Shown here: in pieces, positions 1 to 13,368 of the stretch | How the letters are laid out: each line of letters begins with the position of its first letter | Position numbering within the stretch: the first letter of the stretch is position 1 | DNA from: an uncultured bacterium | Lineage (GTDB): Bacteria > Hydrothermota > Tepidihabitantia > Tepidihabitantales > CAIPLT01 | Assembly: GCA_964642595.1 (NCBI GenBank) | Contig: CAZXRM010000021.1 | Span: 1-13,368, forward strand | Direction: 5' to 3' | Length of the DNA: 13,368 nucleotides | Notes under the pieces: model-generated | The model's input: only the letters and a program-made list of their open reading frames with translations | Database searches by the model: none | What the model was told of the DNA's origin: nothing | Translations under genes and position numbers: made by a program

Positions 1-210
1 CTTACTGAAACACGCTTGGATAGAACCCGTCAAATACGCGGATTGAGATTGGCATTAACTCGTAATAAATCAAGTAAACTCAGAAGTATGTTTTCTAGTT
101 TGTTTAGATTTATATTTATCTTCCTTATTACAAAACATAGAAAACAAGCAAAATCCCCTAATAATTCACGCTTGACTTGAAGTAGGGGATACCTCCCCTT
201 GTAAAACAGT

Positions 211-249
211 GATTAGGGGTTAGGGATTGGGGATTAGTGAGTTAGAGAG
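211..249. repeat. G-rich dispersed element, copy A (GATTAGGGGTTAGGGATTGGGGATTAG...), inside a cluster of six TAGGGGAT-like motifs spanning 153-237
   Basis: It shares the 12-mer ATTGGGGATTAG and the 10-mer GATTAGGGGT with copy C (10735-10764). It contains the telomere-like unit TTAGGG. Confidence 0.6.
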
Positions 250-265
250 AAAATCAACTCGAAAA

Positions 266-289
266 ATACTCTACTTATAAGTAGAGTAT
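266..289. repeat. Perfect 24-bp palindrome ATACTCTACTTATAAGTAGAGTAT; candidate operator or weak intrinsic terminator of the minus-strand operon
   Basis: Read directly from the sequence. On the minus strand the hairpin is followed by UUUUC (rc of 261-265). It lies 210 nt downstream of the activase stop. Confidence 0.4.
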
Positions 290-500
290 GTAAAATTTTG
301 GTTATTAATTACTTAAATGAAATTTCTCTTGTTTCTTGTCAGTTTTTGTTTTGTCATTTTAATTATTTGCCTGGTATTTAAGAACTTGCAGTTGCATTTC
401 CGTTTTTAGCCTTATTTTATCGGTGTTCGGAGCGATGCTCTGAATAGAAATCAATAAATTCAATGATTATGGGATTCAGATATATTAGAAGCTATTTTAT

Positions 501-1469: not shown

Positions 1470-1480
1470 ATTTATAAGGT

Positions 1481-1590
1481 CAAAGCTCAAAACTCAAAGT
1501 GCAAAACCTCAACTCAAAATTCAAAGTTAATTCTATCTGAAATTTTGAGCTTTTAGCTATAGTTTTGAGTTTTGACATTTGAGTTTTGAG
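1481..1590. repeat. Two inverted arrays of about seven heptamers each (CTCAAAR at 1481-1526; TTTTGAG at 1543-1590), separated by a 16-nt spacer
   Basis: Read directly from the sequence. The core CTCAAAACTCAAA (1486-1498) is a perfect 13-bp complement of TTTGAGTTTTGAG (1578-1590). The right array encodes the C-tail of the 365-aa protein. The left array lies in the region immediately 5' of the activase start. Confidence 0.75.
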
Positions 1591-2654
1591 TTCTCTTTTA
1601 CTGCAGTCAATTTTCTACGTTTGATTAAATCGACAAAGGCCTCTAATCGTGTCAGCAAACCGGTTTTTGATGTATGTTCGTCGATGGATAACGAGAGAAT
1701 TGGTGTCGAGTAGTCATCGCTCATTTTTTGTAATGCTTCGAGTGCAATATTTTCCGGCATACAGGTAAACGGGAAAATATGAATTATACCATCTGCGCCA
1801 TTTTTAATGAAAGTGCGGGCTTCACCGACCGTGTTCAGTGCTTCACCGCCGGGTGATTCTTTGAGATAATCTCGGGCTTGAGAATAATGTTTGTATCTTC
1901 GCCAGTCAATGCGCAGCAGATGTTTCAGATGACTATAAAGACTCCGCTCATTCCAAACCCAGACACCCATTTTGCCTAGTTCTTTTTCAATATCGTGATT
2001 GGCAAACGGCTCAAGCATCAGATAGATTTCACCGACCAAGCCGATTTTAATATTATTTTCAGGTATCTTACTGGTAAAAATGAAAAGTTTTTTCAGTTCT
2101 TTTTTAGCAGTCCGTATCTGTGATAGGATATGGGCATCAGACAGGATTTTTAATGCTTGTTTTTCCAGTTGAGTTGCTTGATTATAATCAATTGCCCTTG
2201 CCTTGCGGATGTATTTACGAAACTCGTCAATCAGAGCGCTGTGTATAAGCATTTGATAGGTTGCTTTGATTACTTTGGCGGGCTTGATTGAGAAAATTTT
2301 CGGCATAATCTGAAATAAAAATTGTAATGGCGTGTACTGGCTGATTGGATAGAATTTGATGTTGGGATTGAATTGTTTTACGATGTTTTCCTGAATGAAG
2401 TGATAATAACCAAACCGGCACTTTTTGGCACCAGCCGCCATAAAAAGTGTGTCGGCGCCGTTTTCGATTGCTTCGATAAAATTACCAAGCGTGATTTTAA
2501 AAGGCAGGCAGATAAGTTCAGGAGAATATTTTGTACCAAGCGAAATAGTTTTTGCGGTTGGCAGAGCAGGCATCCGCACTTCAGCACCAAGCGTCTCAAG
2601 AAAATTTTTGATGGCAATTGTGTCATAACCGAAATAGGGGAAAGCGGCTTTCAT
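1557..2654 (-). CDS. Activase-associated partner subunit, paralog B (resembles the DUF2229-type 'CoA-substrate-specific enzyme activase uncharacterised domain'); substrate unknown
   Basis: A 365-aa ORF overlapping the upstream gene by ATGA (2651-2654), indicating translational coupling. It shares motifs with its neighbour: E-L-I-C-L-P-F-K-I, I-F-P-F-T-C-M-P-E and S-I-D-E-H-T-S-K-T-G-x-x-T-R-L-E-A-F. The last 14 aa (VKENSKLKCQNSKL) are encoded by the TTTTGAG heptamer array. Confidence 0.7.
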   Translation of the reverse strand: MKAAFPYFGYDTIAIKNFLETLGAEVRMPALPTAKTISLGTKYSPELICLPFKITLGNFIEAIENGADTLFMAAGAKKCRFGYYHFIQENIVKQFNPNIKFYPISQYTPLQFLFQIMPKIFSIKPAKVIKATYQMLIHSALIDEFRKYIRKARAIDYNQATQLEKQALKILSDAHILSQIRTAKKELKKLFIFTSKIPENNIKIGLVGEIYLMLEPFANHDIEKELGKMGVWVWNERSLYSHLKHLLRIDWRRYKHYSQARDYLKESPGGEALNTVGEARTFIKNGADGIIHIFPFTCMPENIALEALQKMSDDYSTPILSLSIDEHTSKTGLLTRLEAFVDLIKRRKLTAVKENSKLKCQNSKL

Positions 2655-3562
2655 TGTAATTGGGGTGTGGGGATTTGGGAATGGGGGTTAGTATTTCTAC
2701 GGATAATATCAGCAAATGCTTCGATGCGGGTGTTGATTCCGGTTTTAGAAGTATGCTCGTCAATAACCAATTGCAGAAACGGCAGTTTATATTCACTTGC
2801 CTGTTTCATCATTATTTCACTTATCAAAGAATCAGGACCGCATCCGAAAGAAATAATATTACATACCCCGTCAATTTTATCTAAATTATAGTGAAAGGCA
2901 TTATAAAGTTCCCGTTCGTAAACCCATTTGATATTTTTTGCAAATCCCTGTTCAGAATTGAGGATTTGGGGTGATAAATTTTCTTTGGTGGTAATTGCGA
3001 AATTATTAGATTGGAATAAGTTTATAATATCTTTGCTGATAAAATCATCGGACAGGTTATAAAAATGGCTCAAAAGCAGGATTTTTCTCTGATTATTATT
3101 AATCTTTGATTCTTTAGGATAATCCGATAGATAGGGCAGTCCATTTTTTAGAGCATTGATTGTTTTTACGGGATTTTTTGTTAATTTTAATCCGGTTATA
3201 AAATGGGGATATAGAAAATTATTTTTAATAGTTGGTGAAAGAATCTTACATACACTGCCTGCCTGAATTCTCGCAATATCAACAATCCCAATCATTTTCG
3301 GGCAGGTGTGAAGACCAGAATTGAGATTTAAAAACCGGGGTAAAAAGATATGGTCAACTTTATCTTTGAGAAATTCGATGTGACCGCAGATAATTTTAAT
3401 CGGCAGGCAGATTTCGCTTGACACTTTTTTCAGACCCTGCTGTAAAATATCGTTATTGGTCGGGGGCGAGATTAAATAGTCGATGCCCAGCCCCTGAAAA
3501 AATTTTTCCCAGAACCGGCCATAACGAAAATAAAATAAAGCACGCGGTATCCCGATTTTCAT
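2651..3562 (-). CDS. Activase-associated partner subunit, paralog A (DUF2229-like); first gene of the operon
   Basis: A 303-aa ORF. Its N-terminus, KIGIPRALFYFRYGRFWEKFFQGLGIDY, is of the type I recall from 'acyl-CoA dehydratase activase-related' proteins. It carries S-E-I-C-L-P-I-K-I, I-S-F-G-C-G-P-D-S and V-I-D-E-H-T-S-K-T-G-I-N-T-R-I-E-A-F. The C-terminal tail NTNPHSQIPTPQLQ is encoded by the G-rich element at 2659-2693. Confidence 0.7.
   Translation of the reverse strand: MKIGIPRALFYFRYGRFWEKFFQGLGIDYLISPPTNNDILQQGLKKVSSEICLPIKIICGHIEFLKDKVDHIFLPRFLNLNSGLHTCPKMIGIVDIARIQAGSVCKILSPTIKNNFLYPHFITGLKLTKNPVKTINALKNGLPYLSDYPKESKINNNQRKILLLSHFYNLSDDFISKDIINLFQSNNFAITTKENLSPQILNSEQGFAKNIKWVYERELYNAFHYNLDKIDGVCNIISFGCGPDSLISEIMMKQASEYKLPFLQLVIDEHTSKTGINTRIEAFADIIRRNTNPHSQIPTPQLQ
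2659..2693. repeat. G-rich dispersed element, copy B (AATTGGGGTGTGGGGATTTGGGAATGGGGGTTAGTA); canonical G4 motif with four G-runs and loops of 3, 4 and 3 nt
   Basis: It starts AATTGGGG and ends GTTAGTA, as copy C starts AATTGGGG and ends GTTTGTA. It sits at the junction of the two partner genes and encodes ...NPHSQIPTPQLQ*. Confidence 0.6.
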
Positions 3563-5559: not shown

Positions 5560-6566
5560 AAATTACATTTATTGGTGCCGGACGTTGGGCAATGACCCTG
5601 GCTTTAGTTTTGCACCGTAAAAATATTGCAATATCAATGTGGGAATATTCAGAAGAAAGACTGAATATTTTAAAGAAAACCAAAAAATTAAATGACCTAC
5701 CAGAATCGGTTATAATACCGGATACAATTAATATCAGTAATGATTTAACCGACTCGCTCAAGTTAAGTGAAGTTATATTTTTTGCGATACCATCTCAGGA
5801 ACTGAGGTCAGTATTGACTAAAATGTGGTCAATCGTAGATATTAAAAAAAGTCCGATATTAGTCAGTGCGATTAAAGGGCTGGAAAATAATTCGTACAAA
5901 AGAATTTCAACAATCATTAAAGAATTCTTCCCGGATTTACCGGTAGTTGTACTGGCTGGCCCTGGGATTCCTTTTGAAATAGCACAAGGAAAACCGGCTT
6001 CATTGGTTGCCGCATCGCAGGAACATAATGTTGCGGATATAATCCAAAACCTATTATCTGATGAAAATCTAAGGGTTTATACTCATCCGGATGTAGTCGG
6101 AGTAGAACTGGGCGGTGCACTGAAAAATGTGATAGCAATTGCGGCTGGAATATCAGATGGTTTAAAATTAGGGGATAATGCTAAATCTGCTTTAATTACG
6201 CGCGGGCTCTCCGAGATTACTCGTCTAGGTATAGCACTTAATGCAAATCCGATGACTTTTGCCGGATTATCGGGAATCGGTGATGTAATTGTAACATCTT
6301 ACTCGCCATATTCGCGCAACCATATTTTAGGCGAGCAGATTGGACAGGGTATAATATTGGAGGAGACGATTAAATCACTTAATGGCATTGCCGAAGGAGT
6401 TATGACTGCTAAATCAGCAAAAGGACTTGGTTCAAAAATGCGGGTTGAACTGCCGATTATCGAGCAGATGTACTCAATATTATTTGAGCAAGGCGATATT
6501 GAAAAAAGTATAAAGAAATTAATGGCTCGTCCGTTAAAAAGAGAGATGAATTATGAAAAATTCTAA
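5556..6566 (+). CDS. gpsA: NAD(P)H-dependent glycerol-3-phosphate dehydrogenase GpsA
   Basis: N-terminal Rossmann motif KITFIGAGRWAMTLA. GVELGGALKNVIAIAAGISDGL and LSGIGDVIVT are GpsA signatures. The ATGA overlap with plsY follows the canonical plsY-gpsA pairing. Confidence 0.92.
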   Translation: MKITFIGAGRWAMTLALVLHRKNIAISMWEYSEERLNILKKTKKLNDLPESVIIPDTINISNDLTDSLKLSEVIFFAIPSQELRSVLTKMWSIVDIKKSPILVSAIKGLENNSYKRISTIIKEFFPDLPVVVLAGPGIPFEIAQGKPASLVAASQEHNVADIIQNLLSDENLRVYTHPDVVGVELGGALKNVIAIAAGISDGLKLGDNAKSALITRGLSEITRLGIALNANPMTFAGLSGIGDVIVTSYSPYSRNHILGEQIGQGIILEETIKSLNGIAEGVMTAKSAKGLGSKMRVELPIIEQMYSILFEQGDIEKSIKKLMARPLKREMNYEKF

Positions 6567-8842: not shown

Positions 8843-10105
8843 TTACATAAATAATTGTTTTATCATTGCTGAAAGCTGTTCGAATATGTTTTCACTCGAT
8901 GATGTTTTAATATCCATACCATTGACGGTCGGTATAATTGATTGACTGCGTGTTCCATTTTGAATCAGACCATATCGAATCAAACCGAGTGCGGTATAGT
9001 AGGTCGGGTCCGAGATATCACTTGTTTCATCGGAATTTGTCCGATAATTGGCAACTTTAACCGGCAATCTAAAAATCTGCTCAGCTAGAATATCTATTCC
9101 TTTGAGCAATGAAGTCCCCCCGGTCAGAATAATACCACCGGAAAGCCCTTCGGCTAAACCAGTCTCCCGGATTGCATTGTCACAATGCTGTAGAATTTCT
9201 TCAATTCTGGGTTCGATAATTGATGTGAGTAATCGCTGAGAAATCGGGCGATTGACACGACCACTCATATCCTCGATAACAATTGGTTCGTCATGGTCAA
9301 TGCAGCTAATCATTGCCCGACCATAAAGTTTTTTAATTTCTTCGGCTTTTTTATACGGAGTGCGAAGCCCAATTGATATATCTTTAGTTAGATTATCACC
9401 GCCTAAAGGTAATGCTTTATAAAAACGCAAGACACCATCTTTAAAAATAGAAAGATTGGTATTGCCGCCGATATCAACGAGTGCAATTCCTAAATCTTTA
9501 TCTTCAGGTTCGGCAACCGTTAAGGAAATTGCTTGGGGTTGCAGCACTAAAGAATTAGCTTTCAGTTCAAGATGGTCAAGCACCCGATGCAGATTTTCAA
9601 CTGCGGAAAGCGTGCCAATTATTAAAAGCGCATCGAGTTCCAACCGTACTCCGAACATACCAATTGGATTGCGAATTCCCTTTTGCCCGTCAACGATGAA
9701 CTGGTTGGGTATTAAATGAATGATTTGCTCATCGGGCGGGAGCCGAATTGCCTGTGCCTGGCGCAGACATTCATTGACATCTTTTTCAGTTATTCCTTTA
9801 CCGGGATTTTTCACGGGCGCGGTTCCAACGCTGGGCATTTGTTTGATGTACGAACCAGAAATTCCGACAAAAATACGGCAGTTCTTCGCTCGGACATTGG
9901 CCATTTTTTCCGCATCTTCGATAGCTTGAGCAACCGAAACAACTGCTCGTTCTAAATTAATCACGATACCGTTTCTAAAGCCCTCGGGATTGGAAATTCC
10001 CTGACCAATAATATTTAATTTACCGTTATTGTCACTTTCCGCAATGACACTTGCGATTTTGGTCGAGCCGACATCTAAACCAAGTATTCTTTTTAACTTT
10101 GCCAT
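8843..10105 (-). CDS. ftsA: Cell division protein FtsA
   Basis: LGLDVGSTKI N-terminal actin fold. VDIGGNTN, ILTGGTS and a C-terminal amphipathic helix are present. SD GAGGTG is upstream. It lies directly upstream of ftsZ. Confidence 0.95.
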   Translation of the reverse strand: MAKLKRILGLDVGSTKIASVIAESDNNGKLNIIGQGISNPEGFRNGIVINLERAVVSVAQAIEDAEKMANVRAKNCRIFVGISGSYIKQMPSVGTAPVKNPGKGITEKDVNECLRQAQAIRLPPDEQIIHLIPNQFIVDGQKGIRNPIGMFGVRLELDALLIIGTLSAVENLHRVLDHLELKANSLVLQPQAISLTVAEPEDKDLGIALVDIGGNTNLSIFKDGVLRFYKALPLGGDNLTKDISIGLRTPYKKAEEIKKLYGRAMISCIDHDEPIVIEDMSGRVNRPISQRLLTSIIEPRIEEILQHCDNAIRETGLAEGLSGGIILTGGTSLLKGIDILAEQIFRLPVKVANYRTNSDETSDISDPTYYTALGLIRYGLIQNGTRSQSIIPTVNGMDIKTSSSENIFEQLSAMIKQLFM

Positions 10106-10109
10106 TTTT

Positions 10110-11084
10110 TCACCTCACTTCACTTAATTTATTTGGAAAGATTTGTATTTCCTGTTTTAATAATGTACCGGTTTTTAATTCAACGGTACTATTAATGATT
10201 TGAATAAGTTCATAAACATCATTAAAATCTGCATTGTTTTGATTTATTATAAAATTGCCATGCTTTTCCGAAATACAGGCGCCTTTAATTTTCAATCCCT
10301 TAAGCCCACAATCATCAATTAATTTACCAGCAGCAGCGATTGATGGATTTCTGAATACTGAACCAGCTGATGCACCGGTGGGCTGGGTTGCTTTTCTTTT
10401 TAGTTGATACTCGTTAATCTTCCGTCCGATTTTTATTTTGTTACCAAATTCCAATTTCAATTTGCCATGAGTTATAACAAAACCATCTGGCAAATTTGAT
10501 TTACGATATTTAAAATTTAATTCTTTTCGGGTAAGTATTACATCTTCGCCAGTACTTGATATTCCATTGATTTGTTCGATTAAATCTCCGATGTTCTGTG
10601 AAAACGCACCGGCATTAGAATAAATTGCCCCGCCGAATGAACCAGGAATTCCCCAGACGAATTCGATACCGGATAAAGATCGGGCAACCGCATATCGAAG
10701 CAGTTTTGACAAAGGTGTCGCGGCGCCAACAGACAATTGGGGATTAGAGATTAGGGGTGGGGAGTTTGTATGTGCTGACACTATATTATCGAATGCTTTG
10801 CCAAGTTTGATTGTAATTCCTTTTAATCCTTGTTGCGATATCAAAATATTTGAACCTTGACCGATTATGAAATATGGAATTTTTTCTTGATGGGAAAATT
10901 GCAATATCCTTTTCAGGTCGTCTGAAGAATTGATAATAACCAAACATTCAGCATTGCCACCGATGTGAAATGTCGTGTACTTAAATAGTGGTTCGTTCCA
11001 CAGTACTTTAGTTAATTCAGACTCGCCTCGCTGAGTCGAAGCGGGAGTTATAATATTTTTAATAATTCTTCGCCAATCTGCCAT
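10110..11084 (-). CDS. murB: UDP-N-acetylenolpyruvoylglucosamine reductase MurB
   Basis: YTTFHIGGNAE FAD-binding N-terminus. GQGSNIL, GIPGSFGGAIYSNAGA and GACISEKHGNFIIN motifs. SD AGGAG is upstream. The ORF contains an in-frame G-rich element at 10735-10764 encoding SPPLISNPQL. Confidence 0.9.
   Translation of the reverse strand: MADWRRIIKNIITPASTQRGESELTKVLWNEPLFKYTTFHIGGNAECLVIINSSDDLKRILQFSHQEKIPYFIIGQGSNILISQQGLKGITIKLGKAFDNIVSAHTNSPPLISNPQLSVGAATPLSKLLRYAVARSLSGIEFVWGIPGSFGGAIYSNAGAFSQNIGDLIEQINGISSTGEDVILTRKELNFKYRKSNLPDGFVITHGKLKLEFGNKIKIGRKINEYQLKRKATQPTGASAGSVFRNPSIAAAGKLIDDCGLKGLKIKGACISEKHGNFIINQNNADFNDVYELIQIINSTVELKTGTLLKQEIQIFPNKLSEVR
10735..10764. repeat. G-rich dispersed element, copy C (AATTGGGGATTAGAGATTAGGGGTGGGGAG) in frame inside murB
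   Basis: Its reverse complement is translated in the murB frame as (N)SPPLISNPQL. The tail P-Q-L from CCC-CAA-TT is the same as at copy B. Confidence 0.6.
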
Positions 11085-12435: not shown

Positions 12436-13368
12436 TTATTGTTTATGAGTTAATGGATTTTTGAGTTGATGGGTTGATGATGTTGTGTTATTTAATATAT
12501 GTTGTGCGATTTTTTCCGCCGAATCAATTTTTGCAAGAGCAAATGCATTTTTACTCATTTCGTTTAATTTGTTTTTATTATTTATTAATGATTCAAGGAT
12601 GTTTTTTAGTTGTGAAACAAATTCTTGAGAATATCCAGAGCGGCGGTGTTGGTCTAAAATGATTGCAGCGTTGTTTTGGGCTAAAAACTGAGCATTCGCT
12701 GCTTGGTGGTTATCTGTGGCAAATGGGAAGGGAATAATTATGGATGGGATACCAAAAACTAATATTTCTGATAAGACCATACCGCCGGCTCGGGATATTA
12801 CAATACTCGATTTTTCGTAATACGTTTCTATGGACAAAGTAAAATCAATTAACTGACAATTATTTGATTTTACTAATTGTTTGATTTTCTCATAATCACG
12901 CTTGCCGGTCTGAATAATAAAATTCAGTTCCGGCATTTGTGCGGCAAGTTCTACAATATTTAAATTGATAAAACTCGCACCCTGACTTCCGCCAAGAACT
13001 AAAATAGTCTTGCCATCATCTTTTCGTTTGTGATTCAATACTTCGAGACGCAATGGATTTCCAGTATAAACAGTTCTTGCCTTAATCTTTTTCAGTAATG
13101 GAAATCCAAGAAATACCAACTTTGCCCATTTTGCAAAATATTTGGTGGTGCGACCCGGGATGCGATTTTGTTCTAATATAAAGAATTTAATATGCAAAAT
13201 CAATGACCAAAGAATCGGAACTAATGCAGTATAACCACTACTTGAGACAATTGCATCCGGTCTTTCTTTATATAAAATTTTAGGAAATATTATCATCGCC
13301 ATTATGATATTTAAGAAGAATGTAATTTTATCTTTTACACCTTTACCAAAAAAACCGCTGAATGGCAA
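12436..13368 (-). CDS. murG: MurG, undecaprenyl-PP-MurNAc-pentapeptide UDP-GlcNAc transferase; the N-terminus lies beyond the window edge
   Basis: ILVLGGSQGA and the GT-B C-domain motifs (GIPSIIIPFPFATDNHQAANA) are present. The ORF is open to the window end. It carries an unusual C-terminal tail, NNTTSSTHQLKNPLTHKQ. Confidence 0.9.
   Translation of the reverse strand: MPFSGFFGKGVKDKITFFLNIIMAMIIFPKILYKERPDAIVSSSGYTALVPILWSLILHIKFFILEQNRIPGRTTKYFAKWAKLVFLGFPLLKKIKARTVYTGNPLRLEVLNHKRKDDGKTILVLGGSQGASFINLNIVELAAQMPELNFIIQTGKRDYEKIKQLVKSNNCQLIDFTLSIETYYEKSSIVISRAGGMVLSEILVFGIPSIIIPFPFATDNHQAANAQFLAQNNAAIILDQHRRSGYSQEFVSQLKNILESLINNKNKLNEMSKNAFALAKIDSAEKIAQHILNNTTSSTHQLKNPLTHKQ

Follow-up and report, generated by a model that had tools for sequence, protein, structure and literature searches.

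Probable decayed G-rich heptamer arrays at a gene junction and within murB of a candidate-division WOR-3 bacterium

The window analyzed in this study, a stretch of 13,368 nt (contig CAZXRM010000021.1), has a GC content of 38% and derives from a bacterium of the candidate division WOR-3, to which its named homologs also belong. Its minus strand carries genes related to acyl-CoA dehydratase activases, among them two adjacent DUF2229 paralogs, and also holds the end of a division and cell-wall cluster (ftsZ, ftsA, murB, murC, murG). Our analysis focuses on three segments, all of them G-rich on the plus strand, which are referred to as copies A, B and C: copy A is placed between convergent genes at a distance of more than 200 nt from either, copy B at the junction of the two DUF2229 genes, and copy C inside murB (Table 1). 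A sister species (L131/L132) is fully syntenic, with 13 ortholog pairs of 58-94% identity; in a search of GTDB representative genomes with the DUF2229 protein, the sole relative was archaeal and 30% identical. A tRNA scan of the window found no tRNAs, and an Rfam scan gave only sub-threshold microRNA-like matches on the hairpin at 1470-1610.

Table 1. Position of the G-rich copies, associated repeats and genes in the window.
Feature	Position	Strand	Description
Copy A	211..249	+	GATTAGGGG TTAGGG ATTGGGG ATTAGTGAG TTAGAGAG; intergenic degenerate heptamer array
Copy B	2658..2694	+	AATTGGGG TGTGGGG ATTTGGG AATGGGGG TTAGTAT
Copy C	10735..10771	+	AATTGGGG ATTAGAG ATTAGGGG TGGGGAG TTTGTAT; minus strand reads (H)TNSPPLISNPQL in murB
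Dispersed unit with copy A	205..325	+	Array, spacer AGAGAAAATCAACTCGAAAAA, hairpin TACTCTAC-TTATAA-GTAGAGTA (266-290), short tail
C-rich complement of the array unit	150..165	+	AAATCCCCTAATAAT; paired with copy A in the fold prediction
Acyl-CoA dehydratase activase-like ATPase	501-1469	-
(TCAAAAC)n and (GTTTTGA)n heptamer arrays	1480..1592		Intercistronic hairpin; from Tandem Repeats Finder (TRF), fold and translation
365-aa DUF2229 paralog	1557..2654	-	Start without Shine-Dalgarno, 4 nt from copy B
ATGA overlap of 303-aa gene stop and 365-aa paralog start	2651..2654	-	From list of open reading frames (ORFs) and sequence; same in L131
303-aa DUF2229 protein (PF09989, acyl-CoA dehydratase activase-related)	2651..3562	-	Hypervariable C-tail is copy B
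murB, 324 aa	10110..11084	-
Low-complexity period-16 junction	12442..12480	-	Encodes MurG tail TTSSTHQLKNPLTHKQ; leader of murC (without Shine-Dalgarno)

G-rich segments at these three places had been singled out by the original prediction, and all of them are confirmed, with the borders of B and C redrawn after a repeat-family search as listed in Table 1. The exact words of 10 to 12 nt that it had described as shared are present as well: ATTGGGGATTAG occurs at 226-237 and 10736-10747, GATTAGGGGT at 211-220 and 10748-10757. The same holds for the concentration of G-runs, as 8 of the 22 plus-strand runs of at least four G fall within the roughly 110 nt of the three copies. Regions with a G4Hunter score of at least 1.7 number three, as against 0.13 expected, and none of 1000 first-order Markov simulations gave that many. 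The local alignment scores among A, B and C exceed those of shuffles in which G runs were kept as blocks (P = 0.005, 0.019, 0.003). Copies B and C align without gaps, with 27 of 37 positions identical (73%), and A and C have a 15-mer in common except for one base. The three sites are thus related beyond chance.

The unit common to all three copies is a heptamer, ATTGGGG or ATTAGGG, the first of which is GGGGATT in another phase. Exactly one perfect GGGGATT is found per copy (229-235 in A, 2669-2675 in B, 10739-10745 in C). At copy A, TRF reports a period of 7 with 3.9 copies and 80% matches (211-237); for B, C and the L131 ortholog of B, the register AATTGGGG-nnTrGrG-nTywGGG was set by eye. 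Copy C is base-for-base identical in six independent assemblies (JGI, ENA, Logan) and copy A in a seventh (L007). No length polymorphism was seen for C in the six assemblies or for A in L007, and the alignments of 2-9 kb contain no gaps throughout. Assembly error is hence discounted, and the arrays do not vary in length. A phase-variable simple sequence repeat (SSR) of the contingency-locus type was considered and rejected, as the units are imperfect and length polymorphism is absent across assemblies. A literature search with the exact array sequences retrieved no bacterial match.

Arrays with a period of 7, 14 or 21 are not restricted to the three copies. Besides the degenerate B and C, the window contains three of them and L131 contains seven, in 34 kb together, as against three other AT-rich WOR-3 loci (32 kb) in which such arrays are absent. 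In the window, a hairpin (1470-1600, z = -4.4) built from heptamer arrays separates the stop of the 365-aa gene from the activase start, and one of its arms encodes the tail of the 365-aa protein, ENSKLKCQNSKL. The MurG tail TTSSTHQLKNPLTHKQ, likewise encoded by an array, is missing in the L131 ortholog. MurB of L131, in the same loop that holds copy C in the window, carries (AAAGAGC)3 and a pyrimidine-rich arm. In a WOR-3 clade of 61-63% GC, a (CAGATTN) period-7 array (L258 2382-2411) lies at the same gene junction as copy B, where 42 nt account for the 14-aa tail difference between DUF2229 proteins of 311 and 297 aa; the tail insertion of L256 is not clearly array-like. The array lengths of 21 and 42 nt fit the need for retention of the reading frame. 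Arrays are therefore enriched in this clade, located at gene junctions, and read as protein where the frame is open; in the WOR-3 clade of the window, several types of unit give rise to period-7 arrays, most of which lie at gene boundaries and many of which have been absorbed into ORFs. Our preferred interpretation is that A, B and C are probably decayed tandem arrays of about four to five GGGGATT units, which belong to a known class of G-rich heptameric SSR, in a clade that generates period-7 arrays.

Copy B supplies the C-terminal tail of the 303-aa protein, as had been claimed (NTNPHSQIPTPQLQ followed by the stop, on the minus strand). On the mRNA side it is a G-poor leader directly upstream of the ATG of the 365-aa gene. 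Across the DUF2229 family, the tail past the motif ...EAFxEIIRR is hypervariable, for the reason that the following gene starts within it or right beside it. In L131, the DUF2229 gene ends in NTNRQTLNPKPQLS, encoded by AATTGGGGTTTAGGGTTCAGGGTTTGGCGGTTGGTGT; the ortholog of copy B (18532-18570) has the same length, is identical at 27 of 37 positions and retains CCCCAATTA together with the ATGA overlap, while the 303-aa protein and its ortholog share 76% identity. Judged by this comparison, copy B is ancestral and not a recent insertion. The proposed element end GTTWGTA corresponds in copy B to GTTAGTAT, simply the codons of a conserved N-T-N.

The role of copy B may lie in its leader. Shine-Dalgarno sequences are present at about half of the genes in the window and absent at the 365-aa gene, the activase gene and murC. 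The minimum free energy of the mRNA around B amounts to -0.5 kcal/mol over 61 nt. According to our model, B would present itself in the mRNA as a G-poor, structure-free stretch (CCCCAAUUACA-AUG) ahead of a start that lacks a Shine-Dalgarno sequence and overlaps the stop of the gene upstream; as suggested by composition, the function of B would most likely be to keep the ATGA re-initiation site unstructured. The leader preceding the 365-aa gene (window 2655-2664, minus strand) reads CAAUUACAAUG, which we take to be identical to the 3' end of the translational enhancer omega of tobacco mosaic virus. This match is almost certainly a coincidence, and it fits the idea of a G-poor, unstructured leader.

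Within MurB, copy C is translated as AHTNSPPLISNPQLS. As anticipated, the protein is longer in this loop, by 9 aa, than 20 of 24 aligned homologs and than the structure PDB 4pyt, and the alignment with orthologs establishes the segment as a lineage-specific in-frame insertion that is absent from these 20 homologs and from MurB structures in the PDB. The insertion is a surface coil (residues 104-115) between the strands 101-103 and 116-120; in the AlphaFold2 model of MurB, the mean predicted local distance difference test score (pLDDT) is 89.8 and drops below 50 at residues 108-111. Since the nearest MurB proteins without the insertion (P0002, P0006) are only ~60% identical, its age can be dated only coarsely. 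Unrelated insertions occupy the same loop in MurB of P0015 and P0020, and those of P0015 and P0018, which were tried as candidate arrays, turned out to be ordinary AT-rich sequence; the loop is thus generally tolerant of insertions. Copies B and C are indeed read in one frame, as had been observed. As evidence of common origin this has to be rejected: of its three minus-strand frames, C has a single open one, so that the frame was forced and says little on origin. Copy C, whose G-rich strand is the non-coding one, is best seen as a tolerated passenger. It matches B as well as B matches its L131 ortholog; an array such as B may have been the source from which it was copied, or it may have entered murB by some other route.

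A further small repeat is located closer to the N-terminus of MurB. The GC-rich hairpin GACTCGCCTCGCTGAGTC (window 11020-11037, z = -2.3) is unique in the window and encodes an extra N-terminal segment of about 8 aa (TPASTQRGE), with pLDDT below 50 at residues 16-21. At its place, at the N-terminus, L131 MurB has a period-21 (3x7) array of (CTCYYTG). In all, L131 shows several low-complexity repeat stretches (10034-10118, 10328-10405, 19596-19668, 6520-6560). Both the N-terminus and the loop of its MurB, as well as the 365-aa protein's tail, contain insertions composed of a purine arm and a pyrimidine arm, and a CT-rich stretch is present at the murD/ftsW junction. The L131 loop insertion folds with z = -2.6; the other L131 insertions fold no better than shuffles.

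Further in-frame insertions come from the class II aldolase gene (L007 2154-2985, the 832 nt immediately left of window position 1). Compared with PDB homologs, the enzyme carries insertions of ~36 aa and ~10 aa, which are built from the small hairpins AATCCCCCTTTAATAAAGGGGG...GGGGGATT, GCAGGCTTCAGCCTGC and GCAACCTAAAGGTTGC, and intergenic (GGAATYT)n/(ARATTCY)n arrays follow the gene. The notion that this genome tolerates small repeats within genes is borne out: the aldolase and the MurB of the sister species both carry further in-frame repeat insertions.

How such sequences reach the proteome can be sketched as follows. At gene boundaries, slippage or template switching on units of 7 nt would give rise to arrays, and those free of stops would become part of the upstream ORF, forming its C-terminal tail. 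In rare cases, an array in a permissive loop whose net length is a multiple of three might survive as a passenger, as copy C may have done in MurB. Copy A has stops in all six frames and stays intergenic.

Several points weigh against the interpretation as decayed heptamer arrays, or against parts of it. B and C are too degenerate to pass the TRF threshold, and their assignment to the heptamer class depends on the manual register and on the 73% match between them. Growth of C in situ is awkward, as the frame is shifted when units of 7 nt slip within an ORF; C may have a templated or transposed origin. Copy A demonstrably sits within a dispersed unit of ~80-110 nt, as would be expected if an element were mobile or copied. 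When the G-poor sequence around B is shuffled, it is equally unstructured, and the role as an unstructured leader is therefore a compositional inference. Finally, what is known of the arrays in this organism comes from the window contig and the matching metagenome contigs, a part of the whole genome.

The spread of the array type was surveyed by a scan of JGI metagenomes with the pattern ATTGGGGATTAGWGA(N)TTAG, which fits both A and C; the counts refer to the matches listed. The matching contigs range from 26% to 74% GC. Of 113 sites, 86 have further GATTRG-like units beside them, as against about 0.12 per site by chance. Among the intergenic arrays, 32 of 81 lie at most 50 nt after a same-strand stop, and 11 of 81 precede an antisense start by at most 50 nt. 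In 26 of 112 cases, a C-rich array of complementary sequence follows on the right within 150 nt and forms a hairpin; on the left, there is one in three cases. A scan of viral contigs (IMG/VR) yielded mostly random matches, plus (GGGATTR)n hairpins in contigs of 65-67% GC. In one contig of 65% GC that is classed as viral (IMGVR_UViG_3300047586_000299; L024, L042), nine hairpins lie between genes, with (GGGATTR)n as the first arm and (YAATCCC)n as the second. The occurrence of (R)GATTRG arrays in contigs of such different GC content cannot be attributed to a mobile element specific to one lineage.

This distribution is one of the reasons why we regard it as unlikely that the copies are short, non-autonomous mobile mini-elements which insert in frame into genes in the manner of Rickettsia palindromic elements (RPE) or miniature inverted-repeat transposable elements (MITE). 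Among the alternatives, this one survives best. B and C are collinear over 37 nt with similar ends, A and C have their near-perfect 15-mer in common, the murB insertion is lineage-specific, hairpins have been inserted in frame elsewhere in the same genome (aldolase), and the unit around copy A recurs beside unrelated genes in WOR-3 contigs of the same sample. Yet B and C measure only 30-40 nt and have no inverted arms: their folds equal those of shuffles (z = -0.28 and -0.21), and no inverted partner was found in the repeat search. At C, no terminal inverted repeats or target duplication were seen, the flanks sharing only GACA. A MITE was rejected for B and C on the same grounds, as inverted termini and a target-site duplication were not seen. 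That B is orthologous in a sister species only 76% identical in the respective protein contradicts a recent insertion; its right end is conserved coding sequence, and the frame it shares with C is forced for the latter. Of the original prediction, the in-frame and lineage-specific nature of the murB insertion survives, and the comparison with in-frame colonization by RPE fails in so far as B and C are non-palindromic and B is ancestral. A discrete mobile mini-element with defined ends is not supported: what A, B and C have in common is the 7-nt unit.

The strongest point for copying or mobility is the recurrence of a unit of ~100 nt around copy A, and it does not concern the coding copies of 37 nt. 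Matches to the 205-325 unit are found in L145 (85% over 107 nt), L192 (85% over 81 nt) and L230 (79% over 73 nt), and the flanking genes differ among them. L145 and L192 share their JGI sample of origin with L004, the contig with the murB locus of the window; the gene beside the unit in L145 encodes a radical SAM protein with named homologs from WOR-3. Folds of the region 120-300 on the two strands give z = -2.75 and -3.15, and AAATCCCCTAATAAT, which pairs with copy A in this model, could be the vestigial inverted arm of the array. The unit as a whole (~80-110 nt, array plus hairpin) occurs downstream of several WOR-3 genes and is probably a 3'-end or terminator module. A terminator scan of 1-520 called none, and the hairpin at 266-290 narrowly fails the T-run rule on the minus strand.

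Further repeats accompany the matching contigs. About 100 nt to the right of its array, L230 (reverse complement) contains the nested palindromes GCAAACCTTTAGGTTTGC and GCAAGGCTAAAGCCTTGC, which resemble the hairpins of the aldolase insertions, and L192 holds at 256-290 an (ATTCRAA)n array that resembles the array located to the left of the window. These WOR-3 contigs seem to have several families of small repeats in common. The contig L145 ends within its G-rich array, and in every sample the organism of the window assembles only as pieces of 2-13 kb; assemblies may be broken by repeat arrays.

We consider it quite unlikely that the G-tracts are selected regulatory elements, in which four-stranded folding of the template DNA or of the RNA (G-quadruplex or i-motif) controls transcription or translation of the operons. 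Copy B is, as had been noted, a canonical G-quadruplex motif (2662-2687) on the plus strand, which serves as template for the minus-strand genes, and it is predicted to fold as such (-11.3 kcal/mol vs -5.0 with quadruplexes disallowed). In vitro, oligonucleotides of (GGGGATT)4 form very stable quadruplexes, and the arrays of Nostoc and Xanthomonas show a preference for four units (PMC4692102). When the window is compared with L131, 2 of the 16 G-tract positions of B have changed, as against 8 of the 21 others, a hand count whose difference is not significant. For A (G4Hunter 1.72) and C, which possess only three tracts of at least three G each, a quadruplex is not predicted; the RNA from these genes is the C-rich strand; and Rehm et al. 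identified no regulatory role (PMC4692102). The L131 ortholog of B is without the fourth G3 tract (GGCGG), so that the quadruplex is not conserved across the two species. A quadruplex on the template strand is possible for B only, and probably incidental. The two-species comparison thus argues against quadruplex formation being what the junction copy conserves, which bears on the open question of why these repeats exist. Very improbable, finally, is a coincidence of three unrelated low-complexity patches without common origin or process: the segments are short, similarity is easy among G-run-rich sequences, and an old B and a lineage-specific C require no shared history, but the simulations and G-run-preserving shuffles, the common strand orientation, the enrichment of period-7 arrays in the clade, and the arrays which the same unit forms in many other genomes all stand against it.

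A bolder interpretation is doubtful and may nevertheless be stated. The heptanucleotide arrays and small hairpin repeats of this WOR-3 clade might constitute a self-propagating population that is copied into new sites, essential genes included. Such sites would be MurB (two or three positions in two species), the aldolase of class II, and the C-terminal tails of three proteins, namely MurG and the two DUF2229 paralogs. If true, this would amount to an RPE-like colonization of coding sequence by elements of 30-110 nt via an undescribed templated mechanism. In a broader and equally doubtful version, the (R)GATTRG arrays of contigs from 26% to 74% GC would be recognized by a conserved cellular factor.

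Irrespective of this interpretation, decayed heptamer arrays would open a path from array to protein, by way of C-terminal tails at overlapping junctions and, rarely, of loop insertions in an essential enzyme. For annotation, arrays would explain hypervariable tails, odd insertions and contig breaks in metagenome-assembled WOR-3 genomes.

Of the systems with which the copies can be compared, RPEs share the mode of insertion. They were reportedly described by Ogata et al. in 2000 as in-frame, lineage-specific insertions that are tolerated in surface regions of conserved proteins, and copy C, an in-frame insertion in a low-pLDDT coil missing from orthologs, agrees with this. RPEs are palindromic, ~100-150 bp long and recognizable along their whole length; unlike them, B and C are non-palindromic segments of 37 nt that have only a 7-nt unit in common.

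The TAACTGA heptamers of marine Beggiatoaceae, cyanobacteria and Bacteroidetes are analogous in placement (MacGregor 2015, PMC4679880). Their arrays precede starts without Shine-Dalgarno sequences by a few nucleotides, for which a translational role such as binding of ribosomal protein S1 has been proposed, and some overlap the upstream stop or encode the extreme ends of proteins, MurG included (PMC4679880). They differ from the window copies in having another unit, which is not G-rich and contains stops in all forward frames.

The unit GGGGA(C/T)T is, we believe, that of STRR1, one of the cyanobacterial sequences termed short tandemly repeated repetitive (STRR), which Mazel et al. are said to have given in 1990 as CCCCA(A/G)T. 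STRRs consist of 7-bp tandem units that often form hairpins between genes of the same operon (hupS/hupL), and stabilization of transcripts or coupling of translation has been proposed for them (PMC2670836). The hairpin at 1470-1600 and copy B occupy such intercistronic positions. Unlike the window copies, STRRs are described as long, near-perfect and mostly intergenic arrays of heterocystous cyanobacteria.

The closest known relatives are the G-rich heptamer arrays that Rehm et al. 2015 described from Nostoc PCC 7120, with the unit GGGGA(C/T)T, and from Xanthomonas, with GGGAATC (PMC4692102). In Nostoc PCC 7120 (41% GC), 89 arrays were counted, with a preference for four units and 68% of them intergenic; preferred sites lie on the antisense strand, upstream of an ORF by at most 50 bp, or at most 50 bp after a stop codon (PMC4692102). 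These arrays form quadruplexes in vitro, and a regulatory role was not identified (PMC4692102); their function was left open in the 2015 study, and we found no later report on it, nor did our literature search find any report of G-rich heptamer repeats in WOR-3. The window copies agree with this class in the unit GGGGATT, in about four units per array and in a low-GC host such as Nostoc. Head-to-tail 7-nt units of a G-tract and A(T/C)T are recognizable in all three, in A by TRF and in B and C by eye. Copy B is also placed accordingly, its G-rich strand being antisense to the next ORF, a few nucleotides from the start and between aligned ORFs; copy A is remote from genes and copy C intragenic. 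In both systems, some intragenic copies lie on the non-coding strand, and arrays with sequence variation are found at the same junction in related species; quadruplex potential is common to both in the case of B. The copies depart from the class in that they are heavily degenerate, that only B has four G-tracts and is quadruplex-competent, in contrast to A, C and the L131 ortholog, and that two are translated, one of them inside an essential enzyme. With a single perfect unit per copy, they also fall short of the at least two perfect GGGGATT/GGGGACT units per array that were used in the Nostoc search, and are thus decayed relatives of the class, not textbook members. The class itself is already known from Nostoc and Xanthomonas; not a new kind of element but the phylum and the unusual in-frame copies are new, and a poorly understood class of G-rich heptamers is thereby extended to an uncultured phylum.

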